From: Chloroflexota bacterium
Lineage (GTDB): Bacteria > Chloroflexota > Anaerolineae > Promineifilales > Promineifilaceae
Assembly: GCA_024640485.1 (NCBI GenBank)
Contig: JAHEEY010000001.1
Coordinates: 1-30,466, forward strand
DNA length: 30,466 bases
Direction of reading: 5' to 3'
Of this stretch, positions 18,266-27,230 are shown in pieces. The notes under the pieces were generated by a model. It was not told the DNA's origin. It did no database searches and saw only the letters and a list, made by a program, of their open reading frames with translations. Within the stretch, counting starts at the first letter, position 1. Each line of letters starts with the position of its first letter. Position numbers and translations under genes: made by a program.

Positions 18266-19498
18266 CTAGCCGCAGCCTCCGCTGGTGGGCGCCCGCTTCA
18301 GTTCTAGCTCCACTTTGGGAACAAAGTTCAATTCGAACTGGTGAGGATCTGGTTCCGCGGCCGCGTGCCGGGAGCCCAGGGCGGCGTCAAACGCAAATTG
18401 GAGCTGGTCTTGCCCCGCCGCCGTGACCGCATATTGGGCCTTGAATTCGTCGCCGGCAAATTGATCCAGCCAGCCGTTGATGCCGCCGCCCAGGATATAG
18501 ACATTGGGCACGCTCTCAGCCTGCAGCGTCTTCCACGCCTCGGTTGCGGCAGCTTCATCATTACTCATGACGATGAAGACAGCATTAGCTGGTTCCATGT
18601 GCAGATCCGCGATGACATTGGGGAGTTCTGCCTGGGGGACATTCTTGGCATCCAGGATGTGGAACAGGTTGAAGTTGGCCTCATCCCGGACGTCGATCAT
18701 CATTGGTTTGAGCTTGGTATCATGCAGCAGTTCCAGCAGCTCGCCGGGATCAATCTGTACCGCTCGTTCTGACAGAATTTCGCTCTTTTCAGCGGCGATG
18801 GTTTGCCAGCGGTCTTCGGTGGTCGGTTGGCCAACGGCGATCAGGGCGATGGAAACGATCACCAGCGCGCCAGCGGCGCCATAACGCCATTTAGGCGCTT
18901 TCTTGGGTTCCATGCCGCCAAAAATCCGTTCCAGCTGTTCCGATCCCCAGAACATGAATAGGGCCATGAGAACGACCAGCAGTACGACCGTGCCGGTCTC
19001 CAAACCTAGCCAGTCGGGAAGGGTGAAGCGGCCCATATAGGAGGAGTTCCAGAAGCCTTCGAAATTGCTGACAGTTTCGCCGAACATGAAGACGCCGAAC
19101 AGTACCCCCAGGGTAAAGAAAATGCCGTCGATTTTGGCAGTCGCCACTGCGACCAGCGAAGTGCCGGGGCAGAAACCGCCGATGATGAACCCGGCGCCCA
19201 TGATGAGTCCGCCGACGATTCCTGGCCAGAGGTAGGTCGGGTTAACCCAGACCAGGTTGTAGTCCAGCAGCCCCAAGGAAGAAGCGGTGAAGATGAGGAC
19301 CATGGCCACAATGATGCCGGTGAACATGACTTTCAGGACGGTCATGTCTTTGAAGTAGAATTGAGCCGCCAGTTTGCGGGAATTGCCGAAACCAGCGATT
19401 TCCAGAGCGTAGCCGAAGGCGACGCCGATCAGCGCGAATACGACGTAGGCGCCCCAGTGTCCCAGCAGTTCGCTTAAGGGTAAAGGAAACGTTGTCAT
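18266..19498 (-). CDS. YeeE/YedE (sulfur transporter) half-protein fused to a rhodanese-like domain with C-terminal GGCG
   Basis: GVAFGYALEIAGFG, GGLIMGAGFIIGGFCPGT (YeeE); IDVRDEANFNLFHILDAKNVP...VYILGGGINGW (rhodanese fold); AGGAG SD. Confidence 0.87.
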   Translation of the reverse strand: MTTFPLPLSELLGHWGAYVVFALIGVAFGYALEIAGFGNSRKLAAQFYFKDMTVLKVMFTGIIVAMVLIFTASSLGLLDYNLVWVNPTYLWPGIVGGLIMGAGFIIGGFCPGTSLVAVATAKIDGIFFTLGVLFGVFMFGETVSNFEGFWNSSYMGRFTLPDWLGLETGTVVLLVVLMALFMFWGSEQLERIFGGMEPKKAPKWRYGAAGALVIVSIALIAVGQPTTEDRWQTIAAEKSEILSERAVQIDPGELLELLHDTKLKPMMIDVRDEANFNLFHILDAKNVPQAELPNVIADLHMEPANAVFIVMSNDEAAATEAWKTLQAESVPNVYILGGGINGWLDQFAGDEFKAQYAVTAAGQDQLQFAFDAALGSRHAAAEPDPHQFELNFVPKVELELKRAPTSGGCG

Positions 19499-19571: not shown

Positions 19572-20141
19572 TTAGTTCCAGAATTTCCGGACGAAATAGG
19601 CCAGGGCGTAGGCGCCGCCGAATACGGCGAACATAAATGCCCAACTGCCAACGGACAACACGGAGCCTCCAGACAAAGCTTGACCAGAGGTGCATCCGCG
19701 GGCGAAGCGAGCGCCGTACCCCATCAGGCCGCCGCCGATGAAGGCGGTGAGCCAGCGGGTGCGGGTGCTGATTTGGGGCCCTTTATTCGTTTCCAATTTG
19801 ACGCGGCCGTTTATCAAGCCTGAGATGAAACCGCCGACAATAGTGCCGGCTGTCAGGAAGACAATCCAGCTGTCCAGGGGGTTTCTCTCACCGCCGGCCA
19901 TTTCCAGCAGATAAGGAACGCGATCAACATGCCCCGGAGCTACCAGGTCTTCGAAGAAGACCACAAACCGGTTCAGGCCGCCGGACGCGCCCAGGCCGCT
20001 GCCGGTTATAAAGAAAGCCAGGAACAGGACCACGCCCAGCATAATGCCGGCGGCATACGGGTTGGTGTATGCTTTTTCGACCCGCTTGCTCAAGCGACCC
20101 GATGCGGCAGCTGTGGATTCAGGTGATGTAAAAGCTGTCAT
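19572..20141 (-). CDS. YeeE/YedE family half-protein
   Basis: NPYAAGIMLG, GLGASG and GGGLMGYGARFARGCTSGQALSGG; GGAGG SD. Confidence 0.9.
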   Translation of the reverse strand: MTAFTSPESTAAASGRLSKRVEKAYTNPYAAGIMLGVVLFLAFFITGSGLGASGGLNRFVVFFEDLVAPGHVDRVPYLLEMAGGERNPLDSWIVFLTAGTIVGGFISGLINGRVKLETNKGPQISTRTRWLTAFIGGGLMGYGARFARGCTSGQALSGGSVLSVGSWAFMFAVFGGAYALAYFVRKFWN

Positions 20142-20276: not shown

Positions 20277-23024
20277 CTAGTCACCAGTCGCAGGTGCTTG
20301 AGAGCTCTGGTGTACTTCCAGTTCATCCCAGCCCATAATCATTGATTTGATGCCAGCCATCGGCTTGTGGCCGGTGGTGGTCAAATAAACGTGACCAACG
20401 ATGAAGGTGGCAAACAGCCAGGCGATAATCGTGTGGAACGGCGCCAGGAACGGCAGTCCGCCCAGCTTGGCGGCCACTTCCGGCCACCGCTGCACGCCCC
20501 ACATGAAGATGCCGGTCAGCATCTGCAGCGGCAGCAGCACATTGAGGATGCTGAAGTAGGTGATCTGCTGCAGCGGATTCAGTTTTCTGTCGACGGTCTT
20601 GTCGAAGGGATGTTCATCCCCTTTGAAAATACCGCGGATATAGAAGGTTGCCTGGGTGATCGTCTGGCTGAAGAAACCTCGCGGCTGCGGCAGATATTGG
20701 CGAATTTCGCCGCTGGCCAAATGGTAGAAGACTGCCAGGGCAGCATTGACTACCAGAACGGCTGCCAGGACATTGTGTACCTGCACCATATATTTGAAGC
20801 TGAAGCCGCCGAACAAGTGCGGTTTGTGAATGACCAAGCCGGTGACGATCAGGATCAAGATGGCTGTTGTCTGCAGCCAATGCCACAGCCGCTCGTAGAC
20901 GCCGTACATGTAGACTTCCTGCAGTTCCGGCTCGTGGACTGGGCGTCGACGGGCGGCGAAGAAGCGCAGTCCGCCGTGGGTGATCACCCCGACGATGGTC
21001 GCCAGGAAGATGAAGAGCCCGGCCCGGTCGATCAAGCTGACATTGTTATGCCCCAGGACATATAGGTCATCCGCCGCCGTCTGCGGCTGGTAATACAGTT
21101 TGCCGTCATCAGTGGTGACTAGCTCGCCGCTGAACGCGGTGTTGCTGTCGGTGACGAAGGTCGGCATCACCCCGCCTGGCATCTGGTTGGCCAGCAGCAT
21201 CGGCTGGGCGATCCGCGACTCTTCAGTGTGGCAGGTATCGCAATCTTTGGTGGCCCATTGTCCGTTGGTGACATCGTGGTTGATGCTGTACGGTTGGACC
21301 TCACCAATGATACGGGGATTTTCAAGGCCCAGGGCCTGCAGCCGTGACTGGATCAGCGCTTCCTTCTCAGCCGTGTCGATCCGCAGCTCTTCCGCATCGA
21401 GCTTGTTGTTCCCGTCGGCATCGAACGCGGCCAGGATATCGGACTGATAGCTGTCGCCGTCGAACCAGGCAGCCTGCAGGTCCAGCAATCTTACCGGTTG
21501 GGCCGGTTCGCCATAAACCCAAAACCACGAGCTGACCAGGTTGTAGGGAGCCAGCAGTTGGCCGCCGTCATTTCCCTGGCGGCTCAACAAGACTGGCGTG
21601 TAGCCATTGATCAGAGAGTTGCTGCTGATTTCGCCATCGACGCCCCGGAGGGTCGCGGCGGGAGAGCCGTCCAGCTGTAAAACGGTCCAGTCCACATCTT
21701 GGCGAGTTGGCGCGTAGATGAAGGGGATGTGGCACGATTCACAGCTAAGGCTGCTGACATGCTTATCTTTGTAGGGCAGCCAATCGTGGGTCGCATCGAC
21801 ACTGTGGCACGATTCGCAGCGGCGCAAAGTGTTGTCGAGATCCGGCGCGACGGTCCCTTGGGCGCTCTGCCCCTTGGCAAATTGGTGCAGCGGTCGCTGC
21901 AGATATTCACCGATGTCGATCCGTCGGGGGTCGAAGATGAGGTGGCCGGGTTTGGACTCAGACAAGTCCTGGTAATAGACAGGATTGTTGAGGGAATAAT
22001 GGCAGTCGGTACAGGCTACTACCCGTTCGGTATGTATGTCCCAAGAACGGGAGAGCGATTCTTTGCCCGAAAGGTTCAGCCCAGAGTCTGAGAGGCGTTG
22101 GGGCGAGATGACTTGACCGGTGGTTCCAGTAGTCCACTCAGCCAATGATGCCTGGTCCAGAGTCAGTGGTGTCGATAGATCCATGTGGACAACGCCGTGG
22201 CATTGGCCGCAATTCTCGTTGGTGGGATCCTGAATCGTGACGAATTCGACAGTCAGGTAGCCGTCACTGTCAAACGCATCAGCATTCCAATTCCAATTCC
22301 CGTCTTCCTGGGAGATGATGCCGGTGCCCAACAGGGTGGCGCTGCTGGCCCATTTGAATGAACCAGCCTGCAGCGCTGCGATGCGGGCATCATTGTTGGG
22401 GTTTGACAGATGGCAGAGGAAGCAGTTCATTTCCACAGTGCCGGAGTCCTGCCAGTTCCAGGCTGCGGCTTCGCCGGTTTCCGGATCAATGGTGGAGGTT
22501 TCTACATTGCCAGCATCTGCAGCTAGTGAAGCCAGCGGGAACCCGCTGCGGCTGAATACCGCTGGGCCGCCGCCGACATGTCGGGCGCCGAACAGCTTGA
22601 TCCAGTCAGCGGTAGTCAGATCGACGGTGGCGCTCCCCCGAGGAGTTAGGGTGCGATAGGTCAAGGGATTCCATTTGCCGAAGTAACCAGGGCTGGTGTC
22701 CCAAGGGAGGCCATTTTCAACTGTGCCGTTATCGCTGTAATCGTCCAGGCCCACGGAAGTGTGGAAACTGTGTTCGGCGATGAATTCGGTGTCGTGACAG
22801 CTGCCGCAGGTTTGCATCGTAGAGACCGGCTTGCCGCTCTCTAGCACGCTTTCGCCAGCATCATCGAGGAGCTGAAAAGTAGGATGCAGCGGCGAGATCG
22901 GGCTCGTTTCTTGAGCGGACGCCGGCTGTCTGATGAGTATCAAAAGCGCGACCAGCAATACACCCGACAGGATTGTGTAAAGCAGCAGTCTGGGTTTTGA
23001 ATGATTATGGCTGATTGTGTACAT
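20277..23024 (-). CDS. Multiheme c-type cytochrome (7 CxxCH, OTR-paralogous) fused to C-terminal cytochrome b (PhsC/Ni-hydrogenase cyt b type)
   Basis: Signal peptide ending PASA-QE; CGSCH, CFLCH, CGQCH, CTDCH, CESCH, CESCH, CDTCH; then TM helices with ERLWHW, VQVHN, KLNPLQ and FH...VGHVY. Start placed at ATG 23024. Confidence 0.9.
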   Translation of the reverse strand: MYTISHNHSKPRLLLYTILSGVLLVALLILIRQPASAQETSPISPLHPTFQLLDDAGESVLESGKPVSTMQTCGSCHDTEFIAEHSFHTSVGLDDYSDNGTVENGLPWDTSPGYFGKWNPLTYRTLTPRGSATVDLTTADWIKLFGARHVGGGPAVFSRSGFPLASLAADAGNVETSTIDPETGEAAAWNWQDSGTVEMNCFLCHLSNPNNDARIAALQAGSFKWASSATLLGTGIISQEDGNWNWNADAFDSDGYLTVEFVTIQDPTNENCGQCHGVVHMDLSTPLTLDQASLAEWTTGTTGQVISPQRLSDSGLNLSGKESLSRSWDIHTERVVACTDCHYSLNNPVYYQDLSESKPGHLIFDPRRIDIGEYLQRPLHQFAKGQSAQGTVAPDLDNTLRRCESCHSVDATHDWLPYKDKHVSSLSCESCHIPFIYAPTRQDVDWTVLQLDGSPAATLRGVDGEISSNSLINGYTPVLLSRQGNDGGQLLAPYNLVSSWFWVYGEPAQPVRLLDLQAAWFDGDSYQSDILAAFDADGNNKLDAEELRIDTAEKEALIQSRLQALGLENPRIIGEVQPYSINHDVTNGQWATKDCDTCHTEESRIAQPMLLANQMPGGVMPTFVTDSNTAFSGELVTTDDGKLYYQPQTAADDLYVLGHNNVSLIDRAGLFIFLATIVGVITHGGLRFFAARRRPVHEPELQEVYMYGVYERLWHWLQTTAILILIVTGLVIHKPHLFGGFSFKYMVQVHNVLAAVLVVNAALAVFYHLASGEIRQYLPQPRGFFSQTITQATFYIRGIFKGDEHPFDKTVDRKLNPLQQITYFSILNVLLPLQMLTGIFMWGVQRWPEVAAKLGGLPFLAPFHTIIAWLFATFIVGHVYLTTTGHKPMAGIKSMIMGWDELEVHQSSQAPATGD

Positions 23025-23129
23025 AGTTAGTCCCGTGGCCAGGCATTGACTTGGATGGATTCTAGGCTCTGCGAGCCGGCCCATTCCAGATCAATTGCCT
23101 GCCGCTGATTATTACCTTTTGGACATTCC

Positions 23130-24572
23130 TTATCGTGAACCCAGGAAGGTCTCGTCTCGACCACCCCAACGTAGGGGGTCACCATAGTAGCCCAGCGCTT
23201 CCCAATCAATGCGGCCGGTGTCGCCATGGCATTCCTGGCACTGCAGGGCGTTCTCTTTGGGCTGGACCATGTGGCTTAGGTTCCAGTACATCTCTGTGGG
23301 AGCGAATCCGTATTCGCCGCTGTAAGCCATGCCGGAAATTTCCGATCCCAGGGTTACGGCTTTGTCCCAATCGAAATCAGTCCAATAGCCACCTTCGCCC
23401 ACCGTTTTCGGCTGCAGGATGTAGTTGTACTGACTATCGTAAATCTGTGTGGCCCGGTGAATCTTGAAAGGCCAGATCTTGGCTGTCGGGTCGGTGATGT
23501 CACCCAGGGGCATGTTGAGGACCGTAGAGACGGTCGGATCAATGAGATCGCCTAAAATGTACCGGTCAGCCTTCCCATTGAACCAGGCGTACTCCGGCGT
23601 GAAGCCGCGCTCGTAGACGAAGGCGCCTTTGATTTTAAGATAGACATGGGGATCTTCCGGCAAATCTTGCCCAGCAGCGGACCAATCCCATTCCATCTTG
23701 GTTGGCTGACGAACCGCACCTTCCGGCACATGGCATGTTTGGCAGGCGACCGTATCCACATGGGCGGTGATGCGTTCGTCTTCATGCAGCGATTCGTCGT
23801 GGCACTCGGTGCAAGCCAATACATTGCTGTCATCGGCGCTGACCGAGATACTGTGACCTTTGACCAGGTGATCTTCGGTCTTGTGACAGTCAGTGCAGAC
23901 GAAATCATATCGTCCCATATGAACGTCGATATCCTCGGAAGGGAAATAGAGGCTCTCGTCCAGATCGCCGTGTTTGACGGCATTGCCGCCTCCGCCGTTG
24001 AAGTGGCAGCTGCCGCAGTTCTGGCGGGTGGGTGTGCCTACGCTCTGGGCAGCCGCCAGGAGGTCAACCCCTTCTGCCGGCAGCCCCTTGGCTGCTTTCG
24101 TATAAGTGCCAGTATCGGCGTGGCAGACCAGACAGTCGACGTTCCCTTCATCAGAGAAATCGAAGTTCGCATCTTCCCAGCCATAACCGGCGTGACACCG
24201 GGTACATCCAGGCCAGTTGCCCTGAATGCCGATGCAGAAATTGTTGATCTGATTTTTCTTGCCGATAGTGACCGGTTCATCGCGGCCTGGCAGCATGACC
24301 GGTTCGCTCTCCCAGGTGTAATGAACGGTCTCTGCCACCTGATGGGCGGCGTCTTCATGACATGCCAGACAGGCGGCGGTAACTTCCGGACCAGTTTCGA
24401 AGGTTCCCGACAGGAGGTCGGTATGATCTGTGTGCGGGGCCCGTACGGGGACGCCAGCCCAAGGGTCCTGCTCTGTCTCCGGTTCCCCGGAAGCGAATAG
24501 TGCAATTGGGATAATCACCAGTGACAAGGTGACTATCAAACCAATAACCCAGATGTATTTGAAATCTTTCAT
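23130..24572 (-). CDS. otr: Octaheme tetrathionate reductase family c-type cytochrome
   Basis: Eight CxxCH (CLACH, CTRCH, CLVCH, CGSCH, CTDCH, CTECH, CQTCH, CQECH), the family motif GKKNQINNFCIG, KIWPFKIH and LSHMV; N-terminal hydrophobic signal or anchor. Confidence 0.88.
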   Translation of the reverse strand: MKDFKYIWVIGLIVTLSLVIIPIALFASGEPETEQDPWAGVPVRAPHTDHTDLLSGTFETGPEVTAACLACHEDAAHQVAETVHYTWESEPVMLPGRDEPVTIGKKNQINNFCIGIQGNWPGCTRCHAGYGWEDANFDFSDEGNVDCLVCHADTGTYTKAAKGLPAEGVDLLAAAQSVGTPTRQNCGSCHFNGGGGNAVKHGDLDESLYFPSEDIDVHMGRYDFVCTDCHKTEDHLVKGHSISVSADDSNVLACTECHDESLHEDERITAHVDTVACQTCHVPEGAVRQPTKMEWDWSAAGQDLPEDPHVYLKIKGAFVYERGFTPEYAWFNGKADRYILGDLIDPTVSTVLNMPLGDITDPTAKIWPFKIHRATQIYDSQYNYILQPKTVGEGGYWTDFDWDKAVTLGSEISGMAYSGEYGFAPTEMYWNLSHMVQPKENALQCQECHGDTGRIDWEALGYYGDPLRWGGRDETFLGSR

Positions 24573-24811: not shown

Positions 24812-25144
24812 TCAATCAGCTTCCGCCAGCAGTTCTGATTGCCGCGCAACTGCATCGCGAAGGATTACCCGCATCTCGTTGAGAATCTCTATCATCCGTT
24901 TGTCCGCGAGTCGGTATATGACCGCCGGCCCCTGGCGTTCCGTTATCACCAGCGCGCGCTGTCGCAGCACGCGCAAGTGCCGAGAAATAGTCGGCTGGGG
25001 AGTGTGCAGATGATCTGCCAATGCAGACACATTCAGAGGCTGTTCGTCCAAGGCGTACAGAATCTGAATCCTCTTCGGATCGCCCAATGCCTGGCAAATG
25101 TTGGCGTGCAGCATTGATAGTTCATCAATCGTTGGTTTATGCAT
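24812..25144 (-). CDS. ArsR/SmtB family transcriptional regulator
   Basis: ICQALGDPKRIQIL...VSALA...QPTISRHLRVLR...V...RQG..IYRL winged HTH. Confidence 0.92.
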   Translation of the reverse strand: MHKPTIDELSMLHANICQALGDPKRIQILYALDEQPLNVSALADHLHTPQPTISRHLRVLRQRALVITERQGPAVIYRLADKRMIEILNEMRVILRDAVARQSELLAEAD

Positions 25145-25805: not shown

Positions 25806-27230
25806 TTAATTGCTGTCACCCGATGAAGCTGCCGGAATAAAGGTCTTGTACACCCGTGGGGCGTAGATAACATTATCGGATGTAAGGGTCTGCCCATGTT
25901 TGCCGCCTAAGGCAAAGATGCGCACTTCTACGCTGGCGACGCCCAGATCTGACCAGGTTGAAAACTCTGAGAGCTCCGGGGTGTTGACTACCTGCCAGGT
26001 CTGGGTGTTGGGATCATATACTTCACTGTACAGGATCTCATCCGTTTCATTGGCGCCGCCGATGACATAGAGCTTGTTGAGGACGGTCGCCGCTCCGGCA
26101 CCGGACCGAGGCAGCAGCATGTCGGGGCAGCTGCTCCAGGTTAGTGTGGATGTGTCGAAACGATTGCAGGAGGAGAGATCCGCCTCGCCGTTGCGCCCAC
26201 CGACCACATAAAGCTGTCCCGTGACCGCTTTGCCGGCGGCGAAGGCCGCCGGGTGAGGCATCGACGGCAGCGGCCGCCAGCTGTCTGCGCCAACATCATA
26301 GACAAAATTGGTGTCTAGGAAACCACTCTCATCCCATCCGCCGAATAGATATAAGAAGCTGCCGTCGGAGATGGCCAGCCCACCGGCAATTGGCTGAGGG
26401 ATAGCGGTAACGGCACGCCAGGCATCATTGGCAGGGCTGTACACTTCCACAACATTGGTGGGGGTACCATCCGCGGCCCGCCCACCGGGGACGTAGATCT
26501 CGCCAAATAGGACGGCTGCGGAAGCGTCGGCAACGACGGTGGGTTTGGAGGCGGCCTGGCGCCAGCTCTGGGTGGTGGTATCGAACACGTTAACGGTGCC
26601 AACGACGCCATCTGCTGTTTCACCGCCAATCTGATAAACATTGACGCCTACAGCGGCTGCCGCCATATGGGCAACGGCCAAGGGCAAAGGGCGGCTTTGG
26701 AACCAATCGCTGTCCCCAAGGCGCGTTTCTTGGAACAGCTCCGGGGTCGCTTCCGGCCCCGGCTTGAGGGCGCGCTGGCCGAATCCGAACCACAGAGCGG
26801 CGACCACTGCGATCGTCAGCACGGCTGTCGCGGCTGCTGTTCGCCAACTGAAGGGACGGGCTGCCGGCGGCACCGATATGAGATCCGAGGTGGTTTCGGC
26901 TGGGGACGTCGGCTCATCTTCCAACTGTTCTTCAGGCTCTTCGGACGCGGGGAGCGGCAGTTCAGGGCTGTCCGGCACTACAGCAGCTGTAGAAGGGGAA
27001 GCAGCTGCATCTTCGCTGGCGATGATGATCAGGCGCTGCTGGAGAGCCGTTGTCGTCGCTTCGGTTCGCGAAGAAGCCCCCAGCTTGCTAAAGATATTGC
27101 GCAGGTGGACCTTTACGGTGTTCTGGCTGATCAGCAGGCTGGCGGCGATTTCTTTGTTGGAAGCGCCTTCAGCAACACATTGCAGCACTTCCAATTCACG
27201 TTGACTGAGAGAGTCACCAAGTTCAGGCAT
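25806..27230 (-). CDS. LuxR-type HTH - transmembrane - Kelch-repeat beta-propeller protein
   Basis: LSQRELEVL...GASNKEIA..L.IS.NTVKVHLRNIFSKLG..SRTEA; hydrophobic segment AAATAVLTIAVVAALWFGF; six GG...W Kelch repeats. Confidence 0.9.
   Translation of the reverse strand: MPELGDSLSQRELEVLQCVAEGASNKEIAASLLISQNTVKVHLRNIFSKLGASSRTEATTTALQQRLIIIASEDAAASPSTAAVVPDSPELPLPASEEPEEQLEDEPTSPAETTSDLISVPPAARPFSWRTAAATAVLTIAVVAALWFGFGQRALKPGPEATPELFQETRLGDSDWFQSRPLPLAVAHMAAAAVGVNVYQIGGETADGVVGTVNVFDTTTQSWRQAASKPTVVADASAAVLFGEIYVPGGRAADGTPTNVVEVYSPANDAWRAVTAIPQPIAGGLAISDGSFLYLFGGWDESGFLDTNFVYDVGADSWRPLPSMPHPAAFAAGKAVTGQLYVVGGRNGEADLSSCNRFDTSTLTWSSCPDMLLPRSGAGAATVLNKLYVIGGANETDEILYSEVYDPNTQTWQVVNTPELSEFSTWSDLGVASVEVRIFALGGKHGQTLTSDNVIYAPRVYKTFIPAASSGDSN

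Follow-up and report, generated by a model that had tools for sequence, protein, structure and literature searches.

A heptaheme cytochrome c–cytochrome b fusion with the fold of OTR, a probable membrane electron-input module for Otr in Chloroflexota

The protein of interest here, P0001, is encoded on the minus strand at positions 20277–23024 of a 30,466-nucleotide stretch of a Promineifilaceae genome (Chloroflexota; assembly GCA_024640485.1, contig JAHEEY010000001.1; "the window" denotes this whole stretch). It joins a heptaheme cytochrome c domain, with the fold of OTR, to a C-terminal diheme cytochrome b, and its gene directly follows one for a true octaheme Otr; we argue below that, within an Otr respiratory complex, it probably serves as the electron-input module in the membrane. 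The open reading frame remains open up to position 23084 (20277–23084, minus strand, 935 residues translated), from which the residue numbers in this text are counted. A start at M21 (window position 23024) matches an identical 915-residue database entry (P0005) as well as the starts of homologues, more than 2000 of which have the same length, and the gene span of 20277–23024 given in a preliminary description, made from the letters alone, is therefore retained. The gene and the parts of its product are as follows:

20277–23024, minus strand: heptaheme cytochrome c/diheme cytochrome b fusion gene (P0001), 915 residues from M21
22911–23024, minus strand: signal peptide, residues 21–58, ending ...PASA/QE (assigned from sequence, a hydrophobic segment, and a helix at 10–32 in the full-length model)
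21042–22910, minus strand: heptaheme c domain with OTR fold, residues 59–681 (AlphaFold2 model, match to 1SP3, hhalign)
20967–21041, minus strand: linker helix TM0 (about residues 682–706) with the motif H703-G-G-x-R (H703 in 79/79 fused homologues; a helix in the full-length model)
20334–20906, minus strand: four-helix diheme cytochrome b domain, residues 727–917 (PF01292; H735, H770, H884, and H898 invariant)

In the model of the full-length protein (predicted local distance difference test score, pLDDT, 82; predicted template modeling score, pTM, 0.76) the linker helix is followed by four membrane helices. The c domain carries seven CxxCH motifs (at C93, C221, C292, C358, C423, C448, and C615), as had been counted at the outset, and every one of the 14 cysteines of the mature protein lies within them. 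A motif scan of the protein returned no CxxxCH, CxxxxCH, or CxxCK, so that the non-canonical eighth motif which the preliminary description had considered is absent; with no cysteine outside the CxxCH motifs, an eighth covalently bound heme is impossible. Outside the motifs, seven histidines (H67, H108, H351, H400, H433, H442, and H603) show little or no variation among 40 diverse family members. Their number would suffice to make all seven hemes bis-His, and BLASTP and hhalign comparisons place several of them on distal histidines of Otr.

The relationship of the c domain to OTR emerges from a comparison of profiles. Aligned in local mode by hhalign, a 40-sequence profile of the P0001 family and a 16-sequence OTR profile match at a probability of 98.5% (E 3.3e-15), with hemes 3, 4, 5, and 6 of P0001 paired with Otr hemes 4, 5, 6, and 7, and with WDIH..CTDCH facing IDVH..CTDCH and LSCESCHIP facing VACQTCHVP. 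The C-terminal piece on its own (probability 93.5%, E 2.3e-7) pairs SINHDV..CDTCH with LSHMV..CQECH and hence heme 7 with Otr heme 8; the motif parallels to the neighboring Otr that had been noticed by eye are thus reproduced by both alignments. The N-terminal piece on its own gives a weak match (probability 12%, E 0.0024), yet one that is collinear, placing heme 1 on heme 1, G136-K137 on G104-K105, FGARH on CTRCH, and heme 2 on Otr heme 3. A BLASTP register against the neighboring Otr (E 9e-9), which set heme 4 on the wrong Otr heme, was corrected by hhalign. The resulting correspondence is:

22794–22808, minus strand: heme 1, CGSCH (C93), OTR heme 1 (invariant in three family alignments; mapped only by the weak collinear N-terminal alignment)
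22410–22424, minus strand: heme 2, CFLCH (C221), OTR heme 3 (invariant; collinear N-terminal alignment)
22197–22211, minus strand: heme 3, CGQCH (C292), OTR heme 4 (hhalign)
21999–22013, minus strand: heme 4, CTDCH (C358), OTR heme 5 (hhalign)
21804–21818, minus strand: heme 5, CESCH (C423), OTR heme 6 (hhalign and BLASTP)
21729–21743, minus strand: heme 6, CESCH (C448), OTR heme 7 (hhalign and BLASTP)
21228–21242, minus strand: heme 7, CDTCH (C615), OTR heme 8 (hhalign, C-terminal piece)

Fold comparison leads to the same protein. An AlphaFold2 model of P0001 residues 55–690 (pLDDT 90.5, pTM 0.90) has a single significant match in the PDB by Foldseek, Shewanella OTR (1SP3, E 8.8e-9), and VIA-align superimposes the two over the whole chain (Z 13.1; 348/436 residues aligned) at a structure-based identity of ~17%. 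An exhaustive comparison with 48,161 PDB representatives again returned 1SP3 as the sole match (runner-up Z 2.3), in line with the description of OTR as a structural outlier among multiheme cytochromes (PMC9250108). The homology surfaced with these profile–profile and fold comparisons; when the full-length alignment was run as a sequence profile against the PDB, OTR was not among the matches at E ≤ 1, and the OTR family model TIGR04315 gives the c domain 30.7 bits from a local match at 416–466 only, short of its cut-off of 375. Profile–profile alignment and the fold of the predicted model together confirm the c domain of P0001 as an OTR homologue, and the structure prediction and superposition that had been suggested as a check on this homology thereby bear it out.

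The likeness to OTR (SO_4144, 1SP3, TIGR04315) extends along the whole chain and includes OTR hemes 1 and 3–8, most of the distal histidines, and the spacing of the last two hemes, which lie about 165 residues apart in both proteins. The differences are as distinct: in P0001 the CxxCH of OTR heme 2 is degenerate (FGARH), the lysine is not conserved and the active-site cysteine is absent, while about 150 extra loop residues, a C-terminal membrane helix and the cytochrome b domain have no counterpart in OTR.

Two smaller features of the c domain may be recorded here. Among the extra loop residues is an EF-hand-like loop, FDxNGDGxLDxxEL (residues 554–567, positions 21384–21425), which is conserved in the family and sits in a beta-rich region between hemes 6 and 7; it gives a weak match to Pfam EF-hand_5 and recoverin-type matches in the PDB profile search, and may be a calcium site. 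A312 (22149–22151) and L479 (21648–21650) occupy positions that are both cysteine in 61/79 fused homologues and neither cysteine in 18/79, with no homologue having a single one. From this pattern, a structural disulfide looks to have been swapped for a hydrophobic pair in P0001 and some of its relatives.

The missing heme motif and its surroundings define how P0001 departs from an enzyme. Two short segments are relevant:

22566–22592, minus strand: degenerate heme-2 site F165-G-A-R168-H169-V-G-G-G, both cysteines replaced (aligns with CTRCHAGYG of Otr and CGxCHxGxG of relatives)
22671–22679, minus strand: G136-K137-W138, putative counterpart of the Otr Lys ligand in G104-K105 (weak N-terminal hhalign)

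The preliminary description had read FGARHVGGG at about 22567–22594 as the remnant of the Otr heme-2 motif; the residues and the FGARH stretch stand, with the exact span now set at 22566–22592 (residues 165–173). A HMMER search of 1.84 billion cluster representatives with the c domain yields a family of 858 clusters at 50% identity, nearly all of them with seven CxxCH. Five members have eight CxxCH (P0150, P0206, P0210, P0214, and P0216) and a sixth, P0198, also has eight hemes, its first motif being CxxxCH. In a MAFFT alignment, the C-G-x-C-H-x-G-x-G of these six eight-heme relatives coincides with F165–G173 of P0001, with conserved flanks; since all six carry CGxCH at this position, the equivalence of FGARH and CTRCH holds independently of the weak profile alignment to Otr. 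The lysine behaves in the same manner: GK[WFY] is found at its position in 6/6 eight-heme members, the 16 members whose site is degenerate have K, R, N, Q, or G there, and in the 79 fused homologues position 137 is K in 48, R in 17, and N in 6. Being constant where heme 2 is present and variable where its site has degenerated, the lysine tracks heme 2. Many other family members have lost the loop from heme 1 to heme 2 altogether, so that eight-heme, degenerate-loop, and loop-deleted members form a series from intact site through relic to deletion. P0001 itself lacks the combination of a catalytic heme 2 with a Lys ligand and a nearby cysteine (FGARH stands at the site, the position of K137 varies among family members although P0001 has the lysine, and the cysteine is missing), and the Otr segment KKNQINNFC (K105 to C113), whose absence had been noted at first reading, is replaced by FGKWNPLTY. 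The loss of the heme-2 site, proposed from an alignment by eye, is consequently upheld by the six relatives that keep both CGxCH and the lysine.

R168 is retained in 76/79 fused homologues and H169 in 75/79, and position 137 is K or R in 65/79, a degree of conservation that exceeds the need of a dead relic. It would be accounted for if the heptaheme domain were still an enzyme, either through one five-coordinate heme or through an R168–H169 pocket holding a non-covalent eighth heme or an anionic substrate. We regard this as very unlikely: the seven conserved distal histidines match seven hemes, no cysteine is spare for a covalent heme, many members in which the loop is deleted still keep their Otr partner, and a non-covalent heme in a c-type multiheme fold has no known precedent.

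An IQ-TREE phylogeny, which contained neither MmcA nor CbcL, splits Otr from the heptaheme family at 100/100 with a long branch between them. Within this tree a single branch (support 67/94) parts all 36 seven-heme rows from the eight-heme rows and Otr, an arrangement compatible with a single loss of heme 2 without proving it. The separation of the family from OTR is ancient. A recent duplication within this genome was rejected, as a search of the same genome found no second copy of the heptaheme domain and the divergence from Otr is deep; of the gene duplication that the preliminary description envisaged, the origin from OTR therefore stands but a recent date does not (~17% identity to 1SP3, the long branch, 858 clusters).

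The second half of the protein is more readily classified. PF01292 (Ni_hydr_CYTB) matches residues 727–917 with 78.8 bits, above its cut-off of 30.1, and Foldseek relates the four-helix fold to FdnI (1kqf_C) and HyaC (6g94_A), both at a template modeling (TM) score of 0.63 and a probability of 1.0. The closest named family is PhsC (NF011582/PRK15006; 137.9 bits), whose cut-off of 204 the domain does not reach. The four invariant histidines listed above are, by analogy with these proteins, the putative heme ligands. The C-terminal domain is a diheme cytochrome b of the FdnI/HyaC/PhsC type, which bears out the cytochrome b fusion claimed from the sequence at first sight (PF01292; FdnI at TM 0.63).

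We turn to the genes around P0001 and to their conservation. Close relatives occur in at least 565 species genomes, and gene order was read from the best 80 loci, all of which are metagenome-assembled genomes of Chloroflexota (Anaerolineae, Ardenticatenaceae, Promineifilaceae, Caldilineaceae, and Ca. Leptofilum). The operon in the window comprises, besides the fusion gene:

24812–25144, minus strand: ArsR-family regulator at the head of the operon (PF01022; in most of the 80 related loci)
23130–24572, minus strand: true octaheme Otr (P0002) with eight CxxCH, Lys105, and Cys113 (TIGR04315, 564.8 bits, cut-off 375; K105 and C113 invariant in the Otr alignment)
19572–20141, minus strand: YeeE/YedE-type sulfur transporter half (PF04143; conserved downstream in related loci)
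18266–19498, minus strand: YeeE/YedE half with a rhodanese domain, ending ...SGGCG (PF04143 and PF00581; conserved downstream)

In all 77 of the 77 Chloroflexota loci that have upstream DNA, the otr gene lies immediately upstream of the fusion, and the conserved order is arsR–otr–fusion–yeeE half–yeeE half/rhodanese. The association reaches well beyond these close relatives: a distant fused member is arranged as otr–P0233 fusion–two sulfur-transporter genes, a Latescibacterota metagenome-assembled genome has otr–P0130, and distant unfused members show otr–P0160–separate cytochrome b and arsR–otr–P0131–cytochrome b–two sulfur-transporter genes. In three independent cases (P0232, P0215, and P0267) Otr and the heptaheme protein form a single natural chain, in which an Otr with standard heme spacing is joined in frame to the heptaheme start HP.F.LLD, the signal peptide having been removed; P0232 (L088:185-3727), for example, comprises 1180 residues with 15 c-heme motifs and a b domain, and is followed by two transporter genes. 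Read-through artefacts were rejected as an explanation of these three, which are genuine gene fusions and argue for physical cooperation of Otr and the heptaheme protein. The suggestion that P0001 is a wire dedicated to its Otr paralog is thus backed by 77/77 synteny and by three natural single-chain fusions.

The same observations bear on whether P0001 might instead resemble CbcL or ImcH in role, as an extracellular electron conduit or a quinol dehydrogenase of general use, with the adjacency to Otr a matter of inherited gene order. CbcL (GSU0274) of Geobacter sulfurreducens reportedly has nine hemes, a periplasmic multiheme c part and an FdnI/HydC-type diheme b part, and a role in extracellular electron transfer; it is listed among the inner-membrane quinol oxidoreductases (PMC11492766). 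P0001 resembles it in joining multiheme c to FdnI/HydC-type b in one polypeptide, which is what recommends the conduit explanation. CbcL, compared here by its description, differs in its nine hemes against seven and in having no dedicated enzyme partner. Given the OTR fold of the c domain rather than another multiheme fold, an adjacency to Otr that is unbroken in the Chloroflexota loci and recurs in distant subfamilies and other phyla, and the in-frame fusions, such a conduit is scarcely credible.

Taken with the loss of catalytic heme 2, the presence of seven hemes each with a distal histidine would mean that the outward-facing c domain can only pass electrons on, and we propose, at a probability of roughly 80%, that P0001 is the part of an Otr respiratory complex that sits in the membrane and brings electrons in. 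Menaquinol would be oxidized at the cytochrome b domain of P0001, whose two b hemes would carry the electrons across the membrane; the seven c hemes would then relay them to the eight-heme chain of the Otr encoded upstream (soluble, or tethered at its N-terminus), and Otr would reduce its substrate outside the cytoplasmic membrane. We infer the docking of P0001 to Otr, the direction of flow, and the substrate. A sulfur compound such as tetrathionate is the most likely substrate, because the operon also encodes YeeE-type channel halves, a rhodanese, and an ArsR regulator. Our confidence in the direction of electron flow is lower than that in the role itself.

Should the flow be reversed, Otr would oxidize a reduced sulfur compound (for example, sulfur bound to the rhodanese tail, or thiosulfate, yielding tetrathionate) and the heptaheme and cytochrome b domains would feed the quinone pool. 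In favor of this, the b domain comes closest, among solved folds, to FdnI and HyaC, which reduce quinone in their native complexes (Fdn-N and Hyd-1); multiheme chains are reversible in principle, and the YeeE-type thiosulfate/sulfur channels and rhodanese of the operon would suit an oxidizing system. PhsC, to which the b domain is closest among named families, is by contrast the quinol-oxidizing subunit of thiosulfate reductase, and we consider the reverse direction unlikely.

Several points weigh against the electron-input role, or against parts of it. That the nearest solved b-domain folds reduce quinone means that the direction of flow is not fixed. The near-invariance of R168 and H169 is unexplained if the heme-2 site is a mere relic. 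The correspondence of heme 1, the lysine, and heme 2 with Otr is weak at the level of profiles and draws mainly on alignment within the family; the tree support for a single loss is moderate (67/94); and the heme count, the ligation, and the contact with Otr are predictions from sequence and from AlphaFold models built without hemes.

The pruning of heme 2 from an OTR scaffold has a counterpart in the archaea. MmcA, of the Methanosarcina Rnf system, is an OTR-related heptaheme cytochrome that lacks the second heme motif and the lysine; with its seven bis-His hemes it conducts electrons for the membrane complex on which it sits (bioRxiv 10.1101/2023.04.20.537704). P0001 and MmcA share seven hemes, an OTR-like scaffold, and the loss of heme 2, in MmcA together with the lysine; unlike P0001, whose neighbors are arsR, otr, and yeeE-type genes, MmcA is an archaeal protein from an rnf operon, with neither a cytochrome b nor an Otr partner. 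P0001 scores 21.7 bits on the MmcA model TIGR04314, whose cut-off is 250 bits; a search of the genome with this model hits both Otr genes and does not match the P0001 domain at E ≤ 0.01. Since the P0001 family is accordingly not MmcA, the two losses of heme 2 were probably independent, and hence convergent.

A link between Otr and the membrane through an adjacent cytochrome b has been predicted for Thermosulfurimonas dismutans (TDIS_1882/1883; PMC4911364) and for Ignavibacteria Ch128a (PMC7509429). The genome studied here contains the same two-gene form at a second Otr locus (contig C43, L007:4632-8283), where a LysR regulator, an eight-heme Otr of 550 residues, and a cytochrome b of 242 residues are encoded; neither the heptaheme module nor YeeE genes were found there before the contig ends. 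The difference is that in P0001 an OTR-fold heptaheme module is present and fused to the cytochrome b, and those papers describe none. At its C-terminus, the second Otr has the same helix as TM0 (...IGIVIHGSMRV, with an H-G-x-x-R motif), and its cytochrome b shares 38% identity with the b domain of P0001 (E 4e-50). Unfused members of the heptaheme family that have only one helix likewise keep the TM0 motif H-G-G-x-R.

The simplest history for the heptaheme module is therefore one that begins with an anchored Otr and a cytochrome b. The anchored Otr would have been duplicated, one copy keeping its anchor and shedding the catalytic heme while the catalytic copy shed the anchor; the anchored copy would later have been joined to cytochrome b, a fusion which, on the tree, arose or reverted at least three times. 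Among the eight-heme members, P0206 (L098:5001-7732; CGxCH and Lys) is accompanied by a cytochrome b without an adjacent Otr, whereas P0150 (L089:4591-8702; CGxCH and Lys) stands in the order otr–P0150–cytochrome b, and both may be catalytically active intermediates. Of the cytochrome b anchor that the preliminary description had taken to be gained, the fusion is real; the anchor itself was probably inherited, because an anchored Otr with a cytochrome b exists elsewhere in the genome.

On a wider view, to which we give even odds, the trio of Otr, OTR-derived heptaheme protein, and cytochrome b is the main natural electron-input route of Otr across many phyla, derived from a duplicated anchored Otr and representing a second, independent loss of heme 2 besides that of archaeal MmcA; together with YeeE and rhodanese it would make up a self-contained, quinol-driven system for the respiration and uptake of sulfur compounds in Chloroflexota. 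If so, living intermediates of the origin of the trio survive as eight-heme forms that are anchored, some accompanied by a second Otr and others not, and the sulfur-compound system belongs to Chloroflexota of sediments and activated sludge, where they are abundant.

The structure of OTR was solved in 2004 and its native function is still called cryptic; we know of no physiological electron donor for it. The P0001 family gives OTR a dedicated, genetically linked connection to the quinone pool, through which the role of the enzyme becomes testable. It also provides a clean natural case in which the pruning of one heme has made an electron wire out of an enzyme scaffold, parallel to MmcA in methanogens, with the intermediates of that pruning still extant as eight-heme, degenerate-loop, and loop-deleted forms. 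The heptaheme c domain has no model in Pfam or NCBIfam and its database names are generic, a feature search of the protein atlas returned generic multiheme clusters only, and no description of the family was found in the literature searched on heptaheme/OTR/cytochrome b and on OTR in Anaerolineae. The architecture, which had not been recognized as described, belongs to a family that the papers searched do not describe, but its logic has published precedents in MmcA, CbcL, and the Otr–cytochrome b pairs. The evidence supports a family that combines pruning of the MmcA type with fusion of the CbcL type and is dedicated to Otr.

Some observations concern the operon as a whole and its borders. A scan of the operon for promoters and terminators gave results at chance level. 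The YeeE-half/rhodanese protein at 18266–19498 ends in a cysteine-bearing tail, ...RAPTSGGCG. The gene at 25806–27230, which closely precedes the operon and shares its strand, encodes a protein that combines an N-terminal LuxR-type (GerE) helix-turn-helix with Kelch repeats.

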